NCBI GenBank assembly: GCA_001775255.1
Contig: MFCJ01000073.1
Location: 1-35,464 of the forward strand
DNA length: 35,464 nt
Direction: 5' to 3'
Source: Candidatus Dadabacteria bacterium RIFCSPHIGHO2_12_FULL_53_21
GTDB taxonomy: Bacteria > Desulfobacterota_D > UBA1144 > Nemesobacterales > UBA2774
The notes under the pieces are model-generated. The model did not search any database, was not told where the DNA came from, and was given only the letters and a program-made list of their open reading frames with translations. Position numbers and translations under genes: made by a program. This document shows, in pieces, positions 7,199 to 22,618 of the stretch. Position 1 is the first letter of the stretch. Each line of letters opens with the position of its first letter.

Positions 7199-8309
7199 TT
7201 AGAGAGTTTTCTCTCCCGCCTGCATCAGAAGAAACGCTTTTATGAATTCGCTCAGGTCGCCGTCAAGAACGGGTTCGACGTTCCCGGTCTCGAATCCGGT
7301 CCTGTGGTCCTTTATCATTCTGTACGGATGGAGCACGTAGGAGCGTATCTGGCTGCCCCACCCGATCTCCTTTTTCGTGGCATGCATCTCGTCCATCTTT
7401 TCCCTCTGTTTCTCCTTCTCGAGCTCGTAGAGCCTCGCTTTCAGGATTTTCATGGCTGTAGCCCGGTTCTGGTGCTGGGAGCGTTCGTTCTGGCAGCTGA
7501 CGACTATCCCCGACGGCATATGGGTTATTCTTATCGCGGAATCCGTCTTGTTAACGTGCTGCCCGCCTGCTCCGCTCGCCCGGTAGGTATCCACCCTCAA
7601 GTCTTTCTCATCTATCTCGACCACTATGCTTTCGTCGATTTCAGGGGATACGAACACCGACGCGAACGAAGTATGCCTTCTCTTATTCGCGTCGAACGGG
7701 GATATCCTGACTAACCTGTGTACCCCGCTTTCACCCTTCAGGTAGCCGAAGGCGTAATCGCCCTTCACGAGGAACGTCGCGCTCTTCATACCGGCCTCGT
7801 CCCCCTCCTGATACTCTATAAATTCAGTTGTAAAACAGTTAAGCTCGGCGTATCTCAGATACATTCGGAGCAGCATCTCGGCCCAGTCCTGGGCTTCGGT
7901 GCCCCCTGCCCCCGCGTTGATCGAGACGATCGCGTTCCTCTCGTCATCGGGCTCGCCGAGTATCCGTTTGAACTCGAGCGTCTCGACCCGGCTCTTGATC
8001 TCCGAGAGCTTCTCCCTGGCTTCCCTCGCTGCCGCCTCGTCTCCCTCCTCGATGGAAAGCTCCTCCAGTACCTCCACGTCCTCGAGGTCGTTCGAGAGTC
8101 TCTTCAGGCCGTCGAGAGCGTTTTTAATACGGGACTGCTCCCTCAGGATTTCCTGCGCCTTCTCGGCGTTGTTCCAGAAACCCTCCTTCCCCGTTATCTC
8201 TTCTAATTCTTTAAGGCGTAAATTCTTTCCGGGGAGGTCAAAGAAACTCTCCCAATACTACGAGTCTCTTCTTAAGTTCCTGTATTTGCTCTTTATTTTC
8301 TCCAAACAT
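7199..8309 (-). CDS. prfB: Peptide chain release factor 2, expressed through a programmed +1 ribosomal frameshift
   Basis: The frame-0 leader from ATG 8309 (SD GGGAGA upstream) reads MFGENKEQIQELKKRLVVLGEFL, then TGA (8238-8240). A +1 shift on CTT TGA C continues DLPGKNLRLKELEEITGKEGFWNN... into the tracked ORF 7199-8077. That ORF carries the RF2 motifs SPF (VRISPFD) and GGQ (SGAGGQHVN). Confidence 0.92.
8237..8243 (-). promoter_or_regulatory. RF2 autoregulatory +1 frameshift site CUU UGA C with an upstream SD-like GGGAGAG
   Basis: Reverse strand reads ...UUG GGA GAG UUU CUU UGA CCU.... This is the same slippery Leu codon plus in-frame UGA-C as the classical prfB site. Confidence 0.9.
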
Positions 8310-12729: not shown

Positions 12730-14646
12730 TTATCCGCTCATGGCCTCTGCTCCAAGGACCCTGGATACCGCGATCTGGATCTGGTCCACGGAGAAAGGTT
12801 TTTTAATGATATTATAAGCGCCCTCGTCCGTGAGCTCGTCGGGGAGCTGTTCTCCCGGCCTTGAGCTTATGATAACCACAGTTGAGTTCGGGTCTATCAT
12901 TTTGATTTCTCTCAGAAGCTCGAGGCCGTTTTTATTAGATATGGAGAAGTCGAGGAACGTAATGTCGAAATGATTCTTTTTTATAAGCTCTATCGCCTGT
13001 TCGCCGCTTTCAGCGGTCATCACGTTATGTCCCGTGCTCGAAAGGCATTCACTCACGATGTCTCTGATGAACTCCTCGTCGTCGATGATCAGCACATTCC
13101 CTTTTCTCCTGAGCTCGATCACCTTCGCGTTCTGGAATTTCTCTGCCGGTTCAGATTCCGGGGCCTTCGAGACGGTTTGTATATTCGGGAGGTGAATCGT
13201 GAATGTGGTGCCCTTGTTGAGCTCGCTCGAGACTTCTATCCTGCCGCCGTGTCTCTCTATGATCGCGTATATGACGGAAAGTCCGAGGCCCGTTCCCGAT
13301 TTCGATCCTTCGCTCTGTTTTGTCGTGAAGAACGGCTCGAATATCCTGGGCAGGTTCTCCGGAGGAATGCCTGCCCCCGTATCCGAGAAGTCGATTCTCA
13401 CATAATTGCCGGCGAGCTTCGTGCTGATGGCTATGGCGCCGCCCTGGGGCATGGCGTGTTTCGAGTTAATTGCCAGATTGAGGAATACCTGCTGTATCTC
13501 CCCGAGGTTCATCCTGATGGCCGGGACCTTCTCGTAGCTCCTGAGTATCCTTATACCTTCCGTCTCGAAGGTGTGTTCTACGAGTCCCAGGGCGTCGTCA
13601 ATGATGCCCTCTATCTGGGCGACCTGGAATTTTTCTCCTTTTTGTCTCGAGAATGAAAGGAGCTTGTTCACTATCTCGACAGCCCTGTCGGAAGCCTTCT
13701 CTATCACCTTGAGGTCTTTCCTGGCGCTGTCCAGGTCCTGTCTCGTGAGCGCGAGGCTCGTATAACCGATAATGCCGGAGAGTATGTTGTTGAATTCGTG
13801 CGCCACTCCGGCCGCCAGCTGTCCTACGCCCGACATCTTCGCCGAGTGTATTAGCTGCGCTTCGAGTTTCTTCTTCTCGGTTATATCCTCTGTCGCGGCT
13901 ATCACGCCGAAGATCTCTTTCGTCTCGAAGTCTATCAGCGGCGACAGCGTCACTTCGAGGAACTTGCTGTCGTGTCTCACTTCGTGTTTCGTCGAATATG
14001 ACGGGTCGCTCAATATCTTGGGCACAATTGTGTCAAAATTAATCCCCTGGAATAACGAGCTCAGTTTTTCACCCGCGCAGCTCCTGCCGAATATCTCTGA
14101 GGTCTTCGGGTTTGCGGTTTCGACGATAAGGTCCCTGTCCGTCGTTATAATGCTCTCGATCGTGCTGTTGAGCGTGTTTTCGAGCTGTCTGTTCCTCTCC
14201 CGGACCTTGAGCTCGAGGTTGGTGTTCAATTCCTTGAGGTCGCTGAGCAGGCGGGTGTTCTCCTTGTAGAGCTCGTACCTGTCGGCGGCATGCTCGATTA
14301 CGCTTCTGAGTTTCCCGTAATCGAGAGGTTTGATCAAATAGTCGAAGGCTCCGTTCTGAACCGCCTCTACCGCTGTTTCCAGCGAAGCGAATCCCGTCAT
14401 GAGTATTACCGGTATGTTGGGGTCTTTCTTCTTGATTTCTTCGAGGAGGTCGATGCCGCTTTTTACAGGCATTTTGATGTCCGAGAGCACCACGTCGAAG
14501 TGGGATGACCTCAGGTACTCGGCTGCTTTCTCGCAGTTGTTGGCGACTACGACTTCGTAACCTTCCTTGGTCAGTATGTCGGATATGATTTTTAATATAA
14601 GCTGCTCGTCGTCAACAACCAGCACCCGCTTCTTCTTGTCGTTCAT
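12730..14646 (-). CDS. Hybrid sensor kinase: REC - coiled coil - PAS - HisKA - HATPase_c - REC
   Basis: Start chosen at MNDKKKRVLVVDDEQ (ATG 14646, SD GGGAGAGG upstream). N-terminal REC has LSDIKMP, LMTGF and YLIKP. PAS-like block ITTDRDLIVETANPKTSEIFG. H-box MSGVGQLAAGVAHEFNNILSGI. ATPase motifs NLAINSKHAM, DTGAGIP, GTGLGLS. C-terminal REC has VLIIDDEEF, FLDFSI, VVIISS and IIKKP. Confidence 0.88.
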   Translation of the reverse strand: MNDKKKRVLVVDDEQLILKIISDILTKEGYEVVVANNCEKAAEYLRSSHFDVVLSDIKMPVKSGIDLLEEIKKKDPNIPVILMTGFASLETAVEAVQNGAFDYLIKPLDYGKLRSVIEHAADRYELYKENTRLLSDLKELNTNLELKVRERNRQLENTLNSTIESIITTDRDLIVETANPKTSEIFGRSCAGEKLSSLFQGINFDTIVPKILSDPSYSTKHEVRHDSKFLEVTLSPLIDFETKEIFGVIAATEDITEKKKLEAQLIHSAKMSGVGQLAAGVAHEFNNILSGIIGYTSLALTRQDLDSARKDLKVIEKASDRAVEIVNKLLSFSRQKGEKFQVAQIEGIIDDALGLVEHTFETEGIRILRSYEKVPAIRMNLGEIQQVFLNLAINSKHAMPQGGAIAISTKLAGNYVRIDFSDTGAGIPPENLPRIFEPFFTTKQSEGSKSGTGLGLSVIYAIIERHGGRIEVSSELNKGTTFTIHLPNIQTVSKAPESEPAEKFQNAKVIELRRKGNVLIIDDEEFIRDIVSECLSSTGHNVMTAESGEQAIELIKKNHFDITFLDFSISNKNGLELLREIKMIDPNSTVVIISSRPGEQLPDELTDEGAYNIIKKPFSVDQIQIAVSRVLGAEAMSG

Positions 14647-17185
14647 CTGCCTCTCCCGCAGTAATATTATAGTTATTTGATGGAAGTTCAATCGTAATTG
14701 TCGTGCCTGACCCTTTCTCGCTCTCAACTATTATCCTGCCTTTGTGTTTTTCTATGATCTTATAGGCTATCGAGAGTCCGAGACCGGTTCCCATATCCTT
14801 CTTCGTAAAGAATGGATCAAAAATCTTAGTGATGTCTTCCTTATCTATTCCCACGCCCGTGTCCTTGAAGTGTATGTAAACCTTGTCGTTGCTCCCGCTC
14901 GCGAATTCGTCCCACCGGGTGGACGTCTTTATCGAAAAGTCCCCGCCCTTCGGCATCGCCTGCACCGCGTTTAGAATGATATTGATGAATACCTGCCAGA
15001 GCTGATTGGGATCCGCCATTATCTGAGGCAGATCCTCGTCGAGGCTCAGCGCGAGGTTTATGTTGTTGTCGGAGAGCTGCTTGCGTACGAGGATAACGAC
15101 GTTCTCGAGTACGCTGTTAATGCCCACACTCTCGAAATAGGGCGGCTCGGCTTTTGAGAACTTGAGCAGGCTGTCTATGAGCCTGTTCGTCCTGTCGATT
15201 TCATGCTTTATATAATCGAGGTACTCTCCCACGACTTCTGTATTTTCTTTGTCCATCATGTAGGTGGAGATGTAGTATCTGGCGCCTTCGATGATGTTGA
15301 GAGGGTTCCTTATCTCGTGTGCAACGCCCGCCGCGAGCTGTCCGATCGCGGACATCTTTTCCGCGTGCACGAGCTGCGCCTGGGTATCTTTGAGCTCCTT
15401 GTTCGTTTTTTCAAGCCTTTTCGCGTAGTCCTCGACGAGTTTGAACGCGAGCGCGTTTTCGAGCGCAATAGCGCTCTGGTTGGCCATGAGCTTGAGCAGA
15501 TTCACGTCACGCGACGTATACGATAGCCCCGACTTCTTATCGCCCAATGCTATAAAACCGATGAGTTGTTTTTTGAAAAAGAGCGGGATGATGAGCGACG
15601 CGTTAAACCTCTCGAATTCCAGCATGAGTCTTTGAGAGTTGTGAAAATACCTCTCGTCCGCTATGAGGTCTTCCTTGAATATCTCGTTTCCGTGGAAATT
15701 GAGCTGCTGTATGAGGATGTTGTCCTCTTCGAGCGTCGTGTCCGAGGAGCTTCGGACCTCGTCTTTTTTAAAATACCGCTCATACGACCCCAGGTCCTGG
15801 TTGTATATGAATACGGAGACCGGGCTCGAGAACATCGTGTTCTCCACGATTTCGATGATCTTGTCGATTATCTTTTCAAGGCTGAGGAGTGAGGTCATTG
15901 CATAGCTCACTTCCTCCACGGTCCCCCTGTAGTCGTATTTCTTTCTGAAGAAGGTCAGGTCCACCAGGTCCTGTATCCGGTTCTTAAGCGGGTTGAGTGC
16001 AATGACGAGGAATCCGCTCAGGATCACGAAGAAAGCGGGGTTCTTCCAGCCGCCGTACTTTGCGAAAGCGACATTGAATCCGAGCACCGTGAGGGCGAAT
16101 ACGCATCCGACTGCCCCGGTGAGGAGCCCGTATGTGAGCGCCTTTTCAATGATGACGTCGATGTCGAAAAGCTTGTGTTTCACTATGGCGTATGCGATCG
16201 ACACGGGGAATATGATCACGGGGAGAGCCATCAGGTTATAGGGCATGCTTATTTTAAAGACCGTGATGCTGGCTACCACCGAAGCCGGGACGAGCAGGCC
16301 GAAAATGCAGCCGAGTAAGATTATTTGTGCGCGTTGTTTTTCAAGCGCCGACGACGGATTCATGTAGGTCATGAGAGAAGAGATCGGGAAAATCATTGTG
16401 CTCAGGACCACGTAAATCCAGCTTACGGTATTAATGTGTTTCCATATATCATATTTGTAAAAGAAGATGAACTGAAGAACGAAAAGCATCGCGGAAATAA
16501 ACAAAAAGAATATCGATACTAAGTTGTGCGTCATTCTCTTCAGCTTGGCGTCAGACGGGAAAATAAACATCAGATATATTCCGAACAGCGGGCTGAAAAT
16601 CCATGAAAAGAAGGTCAGCTGATCGAACAGATAGACGGCCTGTGCGTCGAACGAGCCGACAAACCAAATACATATCGAAGCACAGAAGAGGAAAAACGCC
16701 TTGCTGGCCCTCAGGTACGGCTTCATCTGAAGAACCATCACGCCGATGATCAGGAACACTACGCCTATCACGTATATGATTCCGAACAGGAGAAGCATCT
16801 CCCGCAGCGTCAATCTCTCGACCGGGATCGTAACGTTGAATGAGTCGCCGTTTCTTTCTATTGTGTAATCCACACTTGAACCCACGGGGAGCTTGTCAAT
16901 TACCTCAAATACGTCATTGGGGATTCTGACAGGTATACCGTTTACTTCCTTTATCTTATCCTTGAACCTTTTGAGCATGTCGCCGTTGACTGTTTTCGGC
17001 GAAATATCTGTTATGACGAGGTTTTTATAGAAGAAAAATCCGGGGTAAGGTTTGCCCACCCTGTTTAGACCTAACAGGAAATTCCCTATGCAGAAGATGA
17101 TCAGAACGAACGCAACAATACTGAATACCGATTTCTGGATGTTCGTTCCGTTCCCTTTCGAAATGGATAATTGTCTGTCAACCAT
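14612..17185 (-). CDS. Polytopic membrane sensor histidine kinase: TM - PDZ-like - multi-TM block - GAF - HisKA - HATPase_c
   Basis: 857 aa. One N-terminal TM is followed by a PDZ-like segment (VNGIPVRIPNDVFEVIDKLPVGSSVDYTIERNG). About 8 hydrophobic helices follow, then a GAF-like block (LIIPLFFKKQLIGFIALGDKK...AIALENA). H-box MSAIGQLAAGVAHEIRNPLN. ATPase motifs NIILNAVQAM, DTGVGI, GTGLGLSIA. It starts 4 nt after the stop of the upstream gene, and its 3' end overlaps the next gene by 35 nt. Confidence 0.88.
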   Translation of the reverse strand: MVDRQLSISKGNGTNIQKSVFSIVAFVLIIFCIGNFLLGLNRVGKPYPGFFFYKNLVITDISPKTVNGDMLKRFKDKIKEVNGIPVRIPNDVFEVIDKLPVGSSVDYTIERNGDSFNVTIPVERLTLREMLLLFGIIYVIGVVFLIIGVMVLQMKPYLRASKAFFLFCASICIWFVGSFDAQAVYLFDQLTFFSWIFSPLFGIYLMFIFPSDAKLKRMTHNLVSIFFLFISAMLFVLQFIFFYKYDIWKHINTVSWIYVVLSTMIFPISSLMTYMNPSSALEKQRAQIILLGCIFGLLVPASVVASITVFKISMPYNLMALPVIIFPVSIAYAIVKHKLFDIDVIIEKALTYGLLTGAVGCVFALTVLGFNVAFAKYGGWKNPAFFVILSGFLVIALNPLKNRIQDLVDLTFFRKKYDYRGTVEEVSYAMTSLLSLEKIIDKIIEIVENTMFSSPVSVFIYNQDLGSYERYFKKDEVRSSSDTTLEEDNILIQQLNFHGNEIFKEDLIADERYFHNSQRLMLEFERFNASLIIPLFFKKQLIGFIALGDKKSGLSYTSRDVNLLKLMANQSAIALENALAFKLVEDYAKRLEKTNKELKDTQAQLVHAEKMSAIGQLAAGVAHEIRNPLNIIEGARYYISTYMMDKENTEVVGEYLDYIKHEIDRTNRLIDSLLKFSKAEPPYFESVGINSVLENVVILVRKQLSDNNINLALSLDEDLPQIMADPNQLWQVFINIILNAVQAMPKGGDFSIKTSTRWDEFASGSNDKVYIHFKDTGVGIDKEDITKIFDPFFTKKDMGTGLGLSIAYKIIEKHKGRIIVESEKGSGTTITIELPSNNYNITAGEADERQEEAGAGC

Positions 17186-17189
17186 TCGT

Positions 17190-19949
17190 TTATTCGCTTA
17201 TTGCCGGAATTTTTGAATACATCTCCCAGTGGAGGTCGACCTTTCCGCCCAGGTTCTCAACTATGCGCCGCGAGCCGAGGTTGTCTTCCAGAACCCATGT
17301 GCCGGCCACCTTCTCGTACCCGTTCCCGATCATCGCCTCACAGACCCTGCTGAGGAGGACGGTGCCGATCCTCCTTCCCTTGAATTCGTCCATGAGACCC
17401 ATGATCATTAATACGCCTTCCCTGATCCCCCTTAACCGGAGGGGCAGCGTTACGAGCTTGTGGGGTTTCAGCTCCCCGTTTAATCCCCTGAATACGGAAG
17501 CGTATTGCGGGAATCCCCCTATGAAACCTATTGCTTCGCCCCCGGACTCCGCGATAAGCCAGTATTCGGGATCGATCAGACTCTTGAACTCGTCCGCGAT
17601 CTCTATGAACTCATCGGCGTCGAACGGGACATTGCCCCAGAGCTGAGCGAGGGAATTGTTGAATATCCTGACCACGCTCCTGACCTCGTTCGCCCAGTCG
17701 GATTTGTTCATCCGCCTTATCTTTACATCCGGCAGCTCCGATTCCCGGGAGTATTTCATTATCGCTTTCACGTTATCGGGGGATTTAAGGTCTATCGTGT
17801 AATGCAGGAGTTTTTTAACCGGCCCGAACCCCGCATTCGTGAAATAGTCGTGGTAGTAGGGCTGTGTGTATACCTGGAGGAAGGACGGTATCTTCCCGTA
17901 GTTGCTCGAGAGCAGGCCGCCGCCGAAGAGTCCGAATATCCCGTTTGCCGGTCCTTGTATCTCCGTACACCCCTCTCTTACGAGAAATTCCCCGGCTTTG
18001 GCAAGGAGAAGGCCGACCGCTTCATCTTTGTCCGGGAGGGCTTCGAAGAACCCCAAGAACCCGACGTTGGTATCGTGATAACGGTTGTAGTAATTGTCTA
18101 TGAACGCGCTTACGGTGCCGACTATCTCTCCTCTCTCCTCGACAACGAACCTCTTCCCGTAAACCTTCCTGAAGTAGAAATAATCGTTCGAAATTAGCTT
18201 AACGTGGTCTTTTATAAGGAAGTAGGGGACCCACGCCGGGTAATCCTTATAAACCTTCCATGAGAACCTGACTGACCTTTCGATCTCGTCTTTGGAGGAT
18301 ATTTCTCTCACGGTGTATTTTTCGTCTTCGGGCACGCTGAGTGAGACCGGCCTGCCTATTATCCCGAATTCCCTCCCCAGCTTCTCGACCACTTCGAGCG
18401 TCCTGTCGATGTCTTCGCGGGTGTGTGTGGCCATAAGGCTGAACCTGAACCTCTCCTGCCCCTTAGGCACGGCAGGGTGCGGTATCGCGTTTACGTATAT
18501 CCCTTCCTCGTGGAACCTCTTGCTCATCTTTTTCTGCGTGAGCTCGTCGCCGGTCATTACCGGGATGATCGCCGACTCGGTCTGTCCCGTGTTGAATCCC
18601 AGGGATTTCAGGCTTTCCTTCATGTACTTGATATTTTTCCAGAGGTTCTCGTGGAGAGACTTGTCGGTTTCCATTACTTCGATCGCGGCTAGTACGGAGG
18701 CTGCGACCGAGGGGGGGAAATTGGACGAGAAGAAAAAGGACCTGGTGTAGTATCTGAGGTAGCTTACTACTTCTTTTGTCGAGGCTATGAAGCCGCCGAT
18801 GCCGCCCAGGGATTTGCTCAGCGTGCCCATTATGATATCTATCTCGCCGGGCTTCATTTTGAAATGGCTGGGCGTCCCCTTTCCCCTGTCCCCTATGACA
18901 CCCGTGGCGTGAGCTTCGTCCACCATGACCTTGGCGCCGTACCTGTGGGCGGTCTCCGCGATCTGCCGGAGCGGGGCTATGTCCCCGTCCATGCTGTATA
19001 CGCCGTCCACTATCACGATCTTTCCTTTAAAATTGTCTTTATTTCTTTTTAATACGTTTTCGAGGCTCCCGACGTCCGAGTGTTTGAACGTCCTGAACGT
19101 GCCCGTAGACAGCATGCAGCCGTCTATAATGCTCGCGTGAGCGAGTCTGTCTATGACCGCGAGGTCTTCGCTCTTTACGAGGGCCTGTATGGATCCGAGG
19201 TTCGTGACGTAGCCGCTCGGAAAGATTATCGCGTCCTCGGCTCCCTTGAGCTCAGCGAGTTTCATTTCCAGCTGCCTGTGTATGTCGAACGACCCTGCCA
19301 GGAGCGGGACCGAGCCTGCGCCCGCACCGTATTTATCGATATTTTCTTTGGCTATTTTCATGACCCTCGGATGAGATGTGAGCCCGAGGTAGTTGTTGCT
19401 CCCCATCATGATCATCTCTTTTTTCTTTCCGGTAAAGTCGTCGTCGATGATCACTCTGTGCGCCGAGGGCGACGCCAGGGGTCTTCTGTACCGTATATAC
19501 CCCTTCGACGCCATGTCTAGTCCGTACTGCCAGAATACCTCTGCCTTTTTAAACAGGTCCTCGTCCGGTATATCTGCGAAATCGGATAGATAATAGTCGT
19601 CGGAATTGAGAGTGTGTTTACTCTTTTCGATGTAGCTCTGTAATTTTGCCCTGTCCGAATCGTATATGTTTATGAATTCGACCCCGATACCGTGCTCGCC
19701 CGTACCGTTCGTTTCGATCCTCTTTACTTCACAGTAGGCCTTGACGGGAAATGCCCCGGATAAATCACATTCGAGAAGGAGTTTTGTACCAGGCTTGAAT
19801 TCGTCTTCAGTTTGTATGAATAGTCCTTTGTAAGAGAGGTCTTTTGCCAAGCCGATCATCATGCCGGAATTTTTTGAATAGACATGAAAATTTACAGGGA
19901 TCCTTTCATGGCTCCTCCGGTCTTTTGATTCCCTGATAATTATCCCCAT
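17190..19949 (-). CDS. Three-domain fusion: PilZ (c-di-GMP receptor) - alpha-oxoamine synthase (class-II PLP aminotransferase; BioF/Kbl/SPT/CqsA family) - large GNAT-type N-acyltransferase region
   Basis: 919 aa.
- Residues ~8-100 carry both PilZ signatures: RxxxR (RRSHER), then DxSxxG (DLSYKG) 22 aa later.
- Residues ~150-535 carry alpha-oxoamine synthase motifs: MGSNNYLGL, DEAHATGVIG, SMDGD and the PLP-lysine motif GTLSKSLGGIGGF.
- Residues ~545-919 are a separate region ending in GNAT motif A (FKGRRIGTVLLSRVCEAM...GYEKV).
SD GAGGGGG lies upstream of the ATG. Confidence 0.85.
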   Translation of the reverse strand: MGIIIRESKDRRSHERIPVNFHVYSKNSGMMIGLAKDLSYKGLFIQTEDEFKPGTKLLLECDLSGAFPVKAYCEVKRIETNGTGEHGIGVEFINIYDSDRAKLQSYIEKSKHTLNSDDYYLSDFADIPDEDLFKKAEVFWQYGLDMASKGYIRYRRPLASPSAHRVIIDDDFTGKKKEMIMMGSNNYLGLTSHPRVMKIAKENIDKYGAGAGSVPLLAGSFDIHRQLEMKLAELKGAEDAIIFPSGYVTNLGSIQALVKSEDLAVIDRLAHASIIDGCMLSTGTFRTFKHSDVGSLENVLKRNKDNFKGKIVIVDGVYSMDGDIAPLRQIAETAHRYGAKVMVDEAHATGVIGDRGKGTPSHFKMKPGEIDIIMGTLSKSLGGIGGFIASTKEVVSYLRYYTRSFFFSSNFPPSVAASVLAAIEVMETDKSLHENLWKNIKYMKESLKSLGFNTGQTESAIIPVMTGDELTQKKMSKRFHEEGIYVNAIPHPAVPKGQERFRFSLMATHTREDIDRTLEVVEKLGREFGIIGRPVSLSVPEDEKYTVREISSKDEIERSVRFSWKVYKDYPAWVPYFLIKDHVKLISNDYFYFRKVYGKRFVVEERGEIVGTVSAFIDNYYNRYHDTNVGFLGFFEALPDKDEAVGLLLAKAGEFLVREGCTEIQGPANGIFGLFGGGLLSSNYGKIPSFLQVYTQPYYHDYFTNAGFGPVKKLLHYTIDLKSPDNVKAIMKYSRESELPDVKIRRMNKSDWANEVRSVVRIFNNSLAQLWGNVPFDADEFIEIADEFKSLIDPEYWLIAESGGEAIGFIGGFPQYASVFRGLNGELKPHKLVTLPLRLRGIREGVLMIMGLMDEFKGRRIGTVLLSRVCEAMIGNGYEKVAGTWVLEDNLGSRRIVENLGGKVDLHWEMYSKIPAISE

Positions 19950-20064
19950 GATATTACCCCCTCTGCAAAATTATTTTCGCATCGCCCTTTAAGTTAGTTA
20001 AGATAATTGTTTATAGCTTTGTTATAATAATCCTCGAATATTAGAATTATTGCAAGTATGCTTT

Positions 20065-20160
20065 CTTCGGTAACCCAACCGCCATAGACCCTGCCAAATA
20101 GTCCTTAGGCTTGTGGCTTTGCGTCCTACCCTTTCGGATAGTTTGCCGTTTCGGAAGGTC
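20065..20160 (-). promoter_or_regulatory. c-di-GMP-I (GEMM-I) riboswitch aptamer
   Basis: Reverse strand: GACCUUCCGAAACGGCAAACUAUCCGAAAGGGUAGGACGCAAAGCCACAAGCCUAAGGACUAUUUGGCAGGGUCUAUGGCGGUUGGGUUACCGAAG.
- Conserved GEMM-I blocks are GGCAAAC, GGACGCAAAGCC and GGGUUACCGA.
- The hairpin CUAUCC-GAAA-GGGUAG is capped by a GAAA tetraloop.
- The second helix carries both halves of the 11-nt tetraloop receptor (CCUAAG / UAUGG).
- It lies about 115 nt upstream of the ATG at 19949. Confidence 0.9.
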
Positions 20161-20176
20161 ACTACCCTTTTTTGGA

Positions 20177-20205
20177 AGTTTAGTGCAATTTGTTTTTTGT
20201 TTCAA
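20177..20205 (-). promoter_or_regulatory. Candidate sigma70-type promoter for the riboswitch-led operon
   Basis: Reverse strand reads TTGAAA-N17-TAAACT, ending about 16 nt upstream of the aptamer. Sequence match only. Confidence 0.4.
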
Positions 20206-20508
20206 TAGGTTATATAAAACGGATGAAATTGTTATGAAAAATATAATTAACTGCCATGATAAAGACGCCCGTGTTATAATGTGCCCTTCTTTATTTATAT
20301 CAGTTCCGACCCGCCGGTGGCTGGATTATCTAATTTAATCAATTAATGACCCGGAAATAGTTTACCCGAATATTAATGGTCGAAAAAAATTTAGAGACGA
20401 ATGAAAAATCATGTAGGTGTGGCGATCACAGACGAAGGCTTGTGTCCGGCGCAGGCAAATACAGCAGGGTGACAGAATGAATTTCTGAGCTTATTGATCT
20501 ACACGGGT

Positions 20509-21579
20509 TTAAATTCGGGCGACTCTCGACATGAGCAGATGATCGGCGAGAACGAGGTTGACCATCGCTTCCGCTATAGGCACTGCCCTCGGGCACAGGC
20601 ACGGGTCGTGCCTGCCCTTTACCTTGAGCTCTTTGGGGTTTCCGAATTTATCGACAGTATGCTGAACTTTGGAGATGGACGAGGTGGGCTTGATGGCTAT
20701 TCTCACGACGAGGTCCTCGCCGTTCGTGATTCCGCCGAGCAGGCCTCCCGCGTTATTCGTTTTAAACCTGAGACTTCCCGCTTTGTCCTTATACATCACG
20801 TCGTTCACCTGAGAACCCTTCTTCCTCGACGCTTCGAACCCCATGCCTACTTCGAACCCCCTGATTCCGCCCAGGCTCATGAGAGCCGAAGCGAGGTCGG
20901 CGTCCAGTTTATTGAATACCGGGCTTCCGAGACCCGGCGGAAGTCCTTTCGATATTACCTCCACCGTCCCCCCGACCGAGTCCCCTTCTTTCCTCACCTT
21001 TTCTATGAGCTCTATCATTTCGGCCGCCTTTTCGGCATCGGGGCATCTTACTATGTTTCTCTCTATCTCGTCGAGGTCTATTTTCCGGGCGACGATTTTT
21101 CCGACTTGTCTCACGAAGCCGAATGTCTCGATACCGTTCAGATTGAGTATCTTTTTCGCGACCGCTCCGGCGGCGACCCTTCCGACTGTCTCCCTAGCCG
21201 AAGACCTGCCGCCGCCCCTATAGTCCCTTATTCCGAATTTCGCGTCGTAGGTGTAATCGGCGTGTCCGGGTCGGTAAGTGTCTTTTATATCCTCGTACGC
21301 TTTAGATATAACGTCCTCGTTCCTGACCATGAGCGATATGGGTGTGCCGAGCGTTTTTCCTTCGAATACCCCCGAGAGAATCTCGACGCTGTCCGACTCT
21401 TTCCTCTGTGTGGTTATCTTGCTCTGTCCGGGACGCCTGCGGTCGAGCTCCATCTGTATATCTTCTTTCGATATCTCGAGACCCGCCGGGCATCCGTCGA
21501 TGACGACCCCGAGGGCAAGACCATGGGATTCGCCCCAGGTCGTTATGCGAAACAGTTGTCCGAATGAATTTCCAGGCAT
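20509..21579 (-). CDS. aroC: Chorismate synthase
   Basis: 356 aa. N-terminus MPGNSFGQLFRITTWGESHG, plus GGGRSSARET and RHDPC motifs. Confidence 0.95.
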   Translation of the reverse strand: MPGNSFGQLFRITTWGESHGLALGVVIDGCPAGLEISKEDIQMELDRRRPGQSKITTQRKESDSVEILSGVFEGKTLGTPISLMVRNEDVISKAYEDIKDTYRPGHADYTYDAKFGIRDYRGGGRSSARETVGRVAAGAVAKKILNLNGIETFGFVRQVGKIVARKIDLDEIERNIVRCPDAEKAAEMIELIEKVRKEGDSVGGTVEVISKGLPPGLGSPVFNKLDADLASALMSLGGIRGFEVGMGFEASRKKGSQVNDVMYKDKAGSLRFKTNNAGGLLGGITNGEDLVVRIAIKPTSSISKVQHTVDKFGNPKELKVKGRHDPCLCPRAVPIAEAMVNLVLADHLLMSRVARI

Positions 21580-21634: not shown

Positions 21635-22618
21635 TCAGAGATAACCGTTTTCCTTAAACCACTTTACGGTGCTTTCTATCGTTTGCTCGAGAGGCCTGGG
21701 GGAGAACCCCAGCTCCCGCACCGCCTTTGAATTATCGAAATACCAGAAGTGCTTCGACCCCTTTACGGAGTCTATGTCCATGGCGACGTAGTTGGGGGCG
21801 GATATGCCGAGTATACGCTCGGCGATATAGGCGCCCATGTAAGCGAGCGGGTAGGGTATCTTCATCCTGGGCCTCGGGATTCCCGTTACCTTCTCTATAA
21901 CCTCGAAGAGCTCTTTGATCGTGATGTTGCGGTTGCTCAGTATGTAGCGCTCCCCGAGCCTGCCCTTCTCGGCCGCGAGGAGGTGACCCAGGGCCACGTC
22001 TTCGGCGTCGACAACGTTAATGCCTCCGTCCGTATATCCCGGAAGCCGCCCCTTGCAGTACCAGAGTATAAATCCGGAGGTCGAGACGTAGACGTCTCCT
22101 GCGCCTATCACTATGGAAGGGTTAACGATTACGAGCGGCAGGCCTTTCCTGAAAAATTTCAGGGCTTCCTCTTCGGCATAATATTTCGATTTTATATACT
22201 GGATGTCAGTGCTTTCGGGGTCAAACGGGGTCTCTTCGTCGGCTACCCCCTTCCCGGGTTTTAACCCTATCGCCGCTACGCTGCTGGTATATACGGCTTT
22301 CTTAACCCCTGCCTCGAGAGCCGCCGTGAATACGTTGTTCGTTCCCTTGACGTTAATATCTTCCATCTTTTTATAGTCGGCCTGCTTGAACGATACGATT
22401 CCCGCCGCGTGGTAAATCGTATCGCAGCCTTCTATCGCTTTCCTGATGGAGTCTATATCGGTTACGTCTCCGTAAACCCTCTCGGCATTTAGATCGTCGA
22501 TATTTATCGTTTTACTGGTCTTTCTGAGGAGTATCCTTAACTTGTCTCCCCTCTCCGCCAGTTTTCTCGCTATGTGAGAGCCCAGGAGGCCGGTCGCCCC
22601 TGTAACCAGTGTAGCCAT
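21635..22618 (-). CDS. NAD(P)-dependent epimerase/dehydratase-family SDR (HpnA / dihydroflavonol-reductase-like)
   Basis: 327 aa. Rossmann motif VTGATGLLGSHI, then YTSS and a YxxxK catalytic pair (YIKSK). Confidence 0.8.
   Translation of the reverse strand: MATLVTGATGLLGSHIARKLAERGDKLRILLRKTSKTINIDDLNAERVYGDVTDIDSIRKAIEGCDTIYHAAGIVSFKQADYKKMEDINVKGTNNVFTAALEAGVKKAVYTSSVAAIGLKPGKGVADEETPFDPESTDIQYIKSKYYAEEEALKFFRKGLPLVIVNPSIVIGAGDVYVSTSGFILWYCKGRLPGYTDGGINVVDAEDVALGHLLAAEKGRLGERYILSNRNITIKELFEVIEKVTGIPRPRMKIPYPLAYMGAYIAERILGISAPNYVAMDIDSVKGSKHFWYFDNSKAVRELGFSPRPLEQTIESTVKWFKENGYL

Follow-up and report, generated by a model that had tools for sequence, protein, structure and literature searches.

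A contig of 35,464 nucleotides (nt) from Candidatus Dadabacteria bacterium RIFCSPHIGHO2_12_FULL_53_21 (MFCJ01000073.1, here called the window over its full length) carries, on its reverse strand, a complete aptamer of the cyclic di-GMP (c-di-GMP) class I family, also named GEMM-I. This aptamer very probably belongs to a functional c-di-GMP riboswitch, located in the 5' untranslated leader of an operon with three genes. The first of these is a fusion gene that encodes a 919-residue enzyme with a PilZ domain, and the two genes that follow encode histidine kinases. A covariance-model match, covariation and the comparison of orthologous loci establish the identity of the aptamer, its fold, its conservation and its linkage to the fusion gene.

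The Rfam model of c-di-GMP-I (RF01051) matches the reverse strand from 20157 to 20066 over its full length of 87 positions (1-87), with 80.2 bits where the gathering score is 35 bits. Searched across the whole window the match has an E-value of 2e-14, and in the local region one of 4e-16. RF01051 is the sole Rfam family above threshold anywhere in the 35-kb window, and it outscores the rest of clan CL00126 at the aptamer site. An earlier note on this DNA, which had read a c-di-GMP-I riboswitch at 20065-20160 and had proposed a search with RF01051, is borne out by this full-length match at more than twice the gathering score, to which its coordinates come within 1-3 nt, and by covariation in 15 orthologous aptamers.

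Read directly, the reverse strand runs CCUUCCGAAAC-G-GC-AAA-CUAUCC-GAAA-GGGUAG-GAC-GC-AAAGCCACAAGCCUAAGGAC...GUCUAUGGCGGUUGGGUUACCGAAG. All of the conserved motifs listed in the earlier note are present on this strand, and the GAAA tetraloop and both halves of its 11-nt receptor were found exactly as described there. The spacer around them, which had been called a 560-bp region free of open reading frames, measures 559 bp and is overlapped by mechanical open reading frames of 52-75 residues; despite these frames, the part of the spacer upstream of the promoter is conserved at only 30-60%. By every sequence-level criterion, the spacer aptamer is a genuine canonical member of c-di-GMP-I and no new kind of element. 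The departure from the earlier note lies solely in how remarkable the aptamer is: its class is well known, and it is a standard example.

The fold is supported by 15 distinct orthologous aptamers, compared over the 22 pairs of the Rfam consensus structure. Base-pair cells are paired in 95.5% of cases, as against 28-44% when the partners are slid, and compensatory changes on both sides are seen in 10 of the 22 pairs; none of 500 shuffles reaches the observed values. In P2 (helix 2), both sides have changed among the orthologs in four of the six pairs. The P3 helices 3 and 4 are 97.3% and 85% paired and include five pairs with compensatory changes, while the two-pair junction helix shows a compensatory exchange of C-G for U-A in the distant orthologs L087 and L092.

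The family of the 919-residue protein comes from metagenome-assembled genomes, which the source records call deltaproteobacteria, Desulfobacterota or Thermodesulfobacteriota; L001, the nearest genome locus, has 85% identity. Twenty distinct loci with upstream DNA, all from metagenome genomes, form the ortholog sample. In 15 of them the aptamer stands directly before the fusion gene. Fourteen of these reach at least the gathering score (40-82 bits), and one, L102, is recovered by a clade-specific model alone (34 bits, E 5e-5). The clade model has no matches in 77 loci with generic alpha-oxoamine synthases of other phyla, and the aptamer is therefore tied to the operon and not to the enzyme superfamily. 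Four loci (L002, L088, L091 and L093) gave no match at E<=1 in a permissive Rfam scan.

The arrangement in L092 is different. Here the aptamer (L092:6965-7052, 55.7 bits) lies before the GAF histidine kinase gene at 7210 and not before the enzyme, which lacks the GNAT half of the fusion and is parted from the kinases by an inverted gene. Because the aptamer of L092 fronts a kinase gene, the kinases are among the genes that the riboswitch is selected to control.

Two further loci show how the element varies. The aptamer of the distant ortholog L090 (L090:3601-3755, 53.9 bits) carries ~60 extra nt in its P3 loop, and this insertion forms a long hairpin by itself. In L002, a 47%-identical ortholog, a degenerate GEMM-I look-alike is found upstream of the gene (L002:2705-2795). 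It has GGGCAAAC and lacks both the GAAA tetraloop and the receptor; GGGAAUGAAAC replaces GGACGCAAAGC, and UCUGAAG replaces ACCGAAG. The look-alike fails the clade model as well as Rfam at E<=1; it is a relic in decay or else a variant whose binding pocket has changed.

The promoter, the aptamer and the ATG at 19949 all lie on the reverse strand. The aptamer is sense-oriented and ends 116 nt before the ATG, close to the distance of about 115 nt estimated earlier. The promoter-like element that had been noticed just upstream was found too. Taken alone, its 9/12 match is no better than that of shuffles. The -35 ATTG, the -10 A and T and the 17-nt spacing are nevertheless kept in eight aligned close ortholog leaders. 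TTGAAA-N17-TAAAAT stands at the equivalent place in L089 and the distant L087, and similar hexamers are visible in the leaders of L090 and L091. A conservation profile was drawn from eight orthologs whose proteins are 50-89% identical to that of the window. From the -35 hexamer to the start codon the sequence is 75-92% conserved, while the remaining spacer is conserved at 30-60%, and the rise (from 0.3-0.6 to 0.8-0.9) falls exactly at the promoter. In an alignment of 14 leaders, a purine-rich Shine-Dalgarno (SD) sequence is present at the equivalent place in the 13 that reach the start codon.

The extreme 5' end of the predicted transcript has features of its own. The first nucleotides (20156-20167, reverse strand) can form a small GGGU/ACCU hairpin, and a GGR...YCC hairpin recurs at the transcript 5' end in most ortholog leaders. 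In the subclade of the window, the 5' flank repeats the P2 3' arm (GGGUAG; GGUCAG in L081) and could compete for the P2 5' arm.

The linker between aptamer and start codon is presumably the expression platform. Its identity is 0.81-0.89 over most of its length, which matches that of the aptamer, and the contrast with the remaining spacer implies that the linker is also under selection. No terminator-like site is present in 19700-20600, nor in L089, and L086 has nothing beyond a 5-bp hairpin with an interrupted U-run. This agrees with the earlier note, which had seen no strong terminator in the platform. Since an intrinsic terminator is missing, control is most likely exerted at translation initiation or by a route that needs no terminator, for example through Rho or the stability of the RNA. 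The linkers of distant orthologs are unrelated to that of the window, and L087 has a strong hairpin with a U-run (AAAAGGGUUUU...AAAACCCUUUUUU) just before the SD, so platforms differ within the family.

Several candidate elements in the linker were considered and rejected. The two hairpins proposed earlier both appear in the centroid fold, the AU-rich one with 9 bp instead of 8, and neither is a conserved element. In the AU-rich hairpin, most orthologs have a T-to-A change that disrupts a pair and is not compensated, and the hairpin is missing from the RNAalifold prediction. The GCGAAAA/UUUUGC hairpin is lost even in L094, which shares 95% identity with the window protein over its 175 matched N-terminal residues; all that remains is an A-run and, after it, a U-run. 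A 10-bp inverted repeat, CAATATTCTT-N10-AAGAATATTG, is perfect in L082, L085 and L098, and is not claimed here because it is degenerate in the window (7/10). Inspection of the linker by eye found that CsrA GGA motifs are not conserved and that no sigma-54 or sigma-28 consensus is present.

We infer the regulatory level and the polarity of the riboswitch from these leaders. Transcription would start at the conserved promoter near 20170, and the first ~105 nt would fold into the three-helix GEMM-I aptamer, in which the GAAA tetraloop of P2 docks into the receptor in P3. The ligand, c-di-GMP, would bind at the junction through the equivalents of G20, A47 and C92 of the Vibrio cholerae Vc2 aptamer (20147, 20120 and 20070), and its binding would alter expression of the operon. 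In the absence of ligand, the CCUUCC tract at the 5' edge of the aptamer would be free to pair with the SD; with ligand, the tract would be held in P1 and the SD would be released. The enzyme would then be made at high c-di-GMP and would also be gated by c-di-GMP through its own PilZ domain.

Such a translational ON switch is our best guess for the polarity, and a weak one. It is consistent with three features of the leaders. The CUUC of the tract can pair with GAAG (20068-20065) and is thus a candidate 5' strand of P1, and the most stable leader partner of the SD region is the 5' pyrimidine tract in nine of 13 clade leaders (five of seven subclades). When the aptamer fold is forced, SD accessibility also goes up in more of the leaders (four of eight) than it goes down (one). 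Other observations weigh against this mechanism or its polarity. RNAalifold places pairs in the aptamer only and none in the linker, and SD accessibility in the window is unchanged between the ensemble with the aptamer forced and the free ensemble (0.42 against 0.39). The anti-SD tract is absent in L082 (CCCGAC) and L085 (CCUGAC), and against a purine-rich SD any run of pyrimidines would come out on top as a partner. A promoter-like block inside the linker could give transcripts that bypass the aptamer. Finally, conservation of a GEMM-I element does not guarantee regulation in vivo, as the case reported for Bc1 illustrates (PMC11218506).

An aptamer that binds c-di-GMP could equally act as an OFF switch, or through transcription (Rho termination, RNA stability), and not by opening the SD. 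Both polarities are known among GEMM-I riboswitches, Cd1 being OFF and pilM ON (PMC9262584). The shifts in SD accessibility upon forcing the aptamer are mixed over the eight leaders compared, with an increase in four, no change in three and a decrease in one. The hairpin and U-run of L087 indicate that termination-type platforms occur in the family, and a conserved linker of 116 nt is long for a simple SD-sequestering switch. On the other side, terminator-like sites are absent from the window and from its close relatives, and the coherent logic with a PilZ enzyme favours ON, on plausibility alone. The translational ON switch and this alternative are therefore each given somewhat less than an even chance, and the smaller remainder falls to bypass or weak regulation. 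The caution of the earlier note that the ON/OFF logic is unreadable from the sequence holds good, given the missing terminator and the inconsistent accessibility shifts.

The promoter-like block lies between the aptamer and the SD and has the consensus TTGCA(A/T)-N17-GAT(A/T)AT over 14 leaders. It resembles a sigma-70 promoter, with 8/12 matches in the window (not flagged by the scanner) and 9/12 in L089 (flagged), and several positions of its spacer are invariant too, beyond what a promoter alone explains. We hypothesise that the block is an internal promoter or a protein-binding site. If most operon mRNA came from an internal promoter at 20055-20027, the aptamer would be conserved yet largely bypassed, and the riboswitch would tune no more than a minor transcript, or would function as a small RNA in its own right. 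TTGCA and the -10-like A, T, A and T positions are invariant in the 14 leaders with the spacing fixed at 17 nt, and the T-to-A change of most orthologs betters the -10 match while it breaks the AU-rich hairpin. This conservation has no explanation in RNA structure. Nevertheless, we consider a bypass unlikely: matches of 8/12 in the window and 9/12 in orthologs are what chance would give in AT-rich DNA, the several invariant spacer positions are more than a promoter needs, and the strong purifying selection and covariation of the aptamer argue that it is used.

The equivalents of G20, A47 and C92 are invariant in all 15 aptamers. Of these, A47 is presumably a ligand contact, as in the Vc2 structures. 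In Vc2, G20 recognises G-alpha and C92 pairs with G-beta, and the GEMM-Ib RNAs, which sense 3'3'-cyclic GMP-AMP (cGAMP), have an A at the position of G20 (PMC6140456). In the window and the 14 other aptamers this residue is a G, as the earlier note had argued in favour of c-di-GMP, and c-di-GMP is therefore favoured over 3'3'-cGAMP. Judging by its conserved contact bases, the window aptamer is predicted to be selective for c-di-GMP.

It is highly improbable that the aptamer senses 3'3'-cGAMP or is bispecific, even though the source records name the host lineage deltaproteobacterial or Desulfobacterota, a broad group to which Geobacter, with its common GEMM-Ib riboswitches, also belongs. The regulated protein has a PilZ domain, which is a c-di-GMP receptor domain, and the invariant G of the 15 orthologs stands against the A of GEMM-Ib. 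The aptamer folds of the c-di-GMP and cGAMP classes are nearly identical (PMC9262584), whereas the affinities are not: wild-type Vc2, with G20, binds cGAMP at ~10 uM and c-di-GMP at picomolar concentrations, a ~million-fold difference (PMC6140456).

A chance resemblance, or a decayed relic without function, has next to no probability and is effectively refuted: relics do occur in this family, as the look-alike of L002 that fails Rfam at E<=1 illustrates, but the match in the window has an E-value of 2e-14, every consensus motif is intact, compensatory changes extend over 15 orthologs, and the conservation of the aptamer is far above that of the flanking spacer.

The operon itself links the riboswitch to a second, predicted c-di-GMP receptor. 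The 919-residue protein has no transmembrane segment. Its PilZ domain (PF07238) scores 51.2 bits, where the cut-off is 22.5, and the RxxxR (R12, R16) and DxSxxG (S39, G42) motifs are invariant in 22 family members. The domain is intact and predicted to bind c-di-GMP. The alpha-oxoamine synthase core is nearest to KBL/AONS and serine palmitoyltransferase (~300 bits, target-normalised TM-score 0.9), and it lies below every NCBIfam equivalog cut-off. The C-terminal half is modelled by AlphaFold2 (AF2) and Foldseek as a tandem GNAT, similar to glucosamine N-acetyltransferase, MAB_4324, the clavulanate tandem GNAT and MshD. This enzyme might plausibly condense an amino acid and an acyl thioester and then N-acylate the resulting compound.

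Two more specific assignments did not gain support. A CqsA-like autoinducer synthase does not fit, as the core reaches only 124 bits to CqsA against ~300 bits to KBL/AONS and serine palmitoyltransferase, and CqsA is kept as a loose analogy. In the case of the bacterial ceramide pathway (Spt, bCerS and CerR), the core falls below every serine palmitoyltransferase equivalog cut-off (384.7 against 640). The candidate partners lend no support either: the nearby reductase-family gene is HpnA-like, and the C-terminal domain is a generic tandem GNAT.

All 13 fetched ortholog loci have gene 2 downstream of the fusion gene; the two are direct neighbours in 11 and are separated by other genes in L091 and L092. 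Gene 3 is syntenic in 11 of the 13, and the loci L091 and L092 end before its position. The coordinates of these genes and of the leader elements are collected in the table.

Features of the riboswitch leader and of the operon in the window (- denotes the reverse strand)
Feature	Position	Strand	Basis or remark
c-di-GMP-I (GEMM-I) aptamer, complete	20066..20157	-	RF01051 match and covariation in 15 aptamers
GGCAAAC	20147-20141	-	Read directly
GGACGCAAAGCC	20126-20115	-	Read directly
GGGUUACCGAA	20076-20066	-	Read directly
P2 hairpin CUAUCC-GAAA-GGGUAG, GNRA tetraloop	20126..20141	-	Read directly and RF01051; GAAA at 20135-20132
P3 helix with 11-nt tetraloop receptor	20072..20118	-	CCUAAG 20109-20104, UAUGG 20086-20082
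G, Vc2 G20 equivalent (ligand-specificity position)	20147	-	Rfam consensus alignment; directly 5' of junction-helix GC
A, Vc2 A47 equivalent	20120	-	Rfam consensus alignment
C, Vc2 C92 equivalent	20070	-	Rfam consensus alignment
Sigma-70-like promoter TTGAAA-N17-TAAACT	20177..20205	-	9/12 matches; predicted transcription start ~20170
CCUUCC pyrimidine tract at aptamer 5' edge, candidate anti-SD	20153..20158	-	Inference
116-nt linker, presumed expression platform	19950..20065	-	Sequence conserved
AU-rich hairpin, 9 bp	20051-20026	-	Centroid fold
GCGAAAA/UUUUGC hairpin next to SD	19980-19965	-	Centroid fold
TTGCAA-N17-GATTAT block in linker (GATAAT in most orthologs)	20027..20055	-	Invariant columns in 14-leader alignment
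Shine-Dalgarno GAGGGGG	19957..19963	-	7 nt before ATG 19949
Gene 1, 919 residues, soluble: PilZ (10-108), alpha-oxoamine synthase (~145-531), tandem GNAT (~545-915)	17190..19949	-	Pfam, NCBIfam, PDB sequence search, AF2 and Foldseek
Gene 2, 857 residues: sensor histidine kinase, ~10 transmembrane segments, GAF, HisKA, HATPase	14612..17185	-	Starts 4 nt after gene 1
Gene 3: soluble hybrid kinase REC-PAS-HisKA-HATPase-REC	12730..14646	-	Probable start ATG 14646, overlaps end of gene 2

Genes around the operon and its orthologs provide additional observations. In L088, an ortholog without the aptamer, genes for a CZB-GGDEF diguanylate cyclase and a REC-HD-GYP phosphodiesterase lie immediately upstream of the fusion gene (L088:1664-3725). 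The operon is therefore again linked to c-di-GMP, and this suggests an alternative local wiring to the same signal. In the window, a gene for an HpnA-like NAD-dependent epimerase/reductase is found two genes upstream (21635-22618, reverse strand), syntenic with aroC and the operon. It scores 336 bits, where the TIGR03466 cut-off is 367.65, and also matches SdmB, a sterol demethylase protein; the gene may be connected with lipid modification. Further downstream, prfB (~8310-7199, reverse strand) has a classical programmed +1 frameshift site at 8238-8255, where an SD-like GGGAG is followed by CUU UGA C. Its large open reading frame (7199-8077) lacks the N-terminus, and the Pfam PCRF match begins at profile position 58. 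The site is ordinary and expected for a release factor 2 gene.

To riboswitch biology these results add little, since any Rfam-based annotation would catch a canonical GEMM-I aptamer with such a high score. Their value is that of a functional pointer, which places an uncharacterised, conserved Desulfobacterota operon of an enzyme and kinases firmly in the c-di-GMP regulon. Signalling by c-di-GMP would act twice on one gene, on its RNA leader and on the PilZ domain of its product. The conserved linker, which has no recognisable switching structure, poses a small puzzle about how the signal is relayed in GEMM-I switches that lack a terminator. It is this two-level control, the operon-specific conservation and the linker that give the system a modest interest.

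It is tempting to speculate further, although the following proposal is improbable as a whole. The riboswitch and its structure-less linker may form a non-canonical platform, perhaps with an internal promoter or operator, and the operon may be a c-di-GMP-gated synthase/sensor pair. The PilZ-regulated enzyme would produce an aminoketone with an N-acyl group, either a lipid or a diffusible signal, and the co-transcribed GAF kinase with its ten transmembrane segments and the hybrid kinase would respond to it. The CqsA/CqsS pair offers a loose analogy for such an arrangement. If this were true, one uncharacterised pathway would be under c-di-GMP control at both the RNA and the protein level.

The Vc2 aptamer, from the tfoY leader of V. 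cholerae, is the structural reference for c-di-GMP-I (PDB 3IRW, 3MXH). It shares with the window the three-helix junction, the P2 GAAA tetraloop and the 11-nt receptor of P3 into which it docks in Vc2, the G20, A47 and C92 positions, and the order of the blocks GGCAAAC, GACGCAAAGC and ACCGA. The two differ in host phylum, downstream genes, flanks and P1. No published GEMM-I element before a PilZ-aminotransferase gene was found in a literature search that was incomplete and does not prove its absence.

The leader of gbpA in the same species provides a closer parallel in layout. The GEMM motif of Vc1 occupies the first 111 nt of a 225-nt 5' untranslated region and is an ON regulator (PMC4744006); as in the window, the leader is long, with the aptamer at its very 5' end and >100 nt between aptamer and start codon. 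The ON behaviour of Vc1 at a similar aptamer-to-start distance was counted, by analogy, toward the tentative ON polarity proposed here. Vc1 governs a secreted colonisation factor, and its ON behaviour is known, whereas that of the window is a guess.

The aptamers of Cd1 from Clostridioides difficile and of pilM from Geobacter have the same architecture as that of the window. Both use an intrinsic terminator (PMC9262584), unlike the window, and pilM senses cGAMP through an A at the G20 position, where the window has a G. Bc1 of Bacillus thuringiensis resembles the window in its long, conserved expression platform (PMC11218506), and differs in its two clear terminators, of which the window has none. 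The DNA of the Bc1 platform is also bound by the transcription factor Zur (PMC11218506). Bc1 and Zur thus set a precedent for DNA-level elements within a riboswitch leader.

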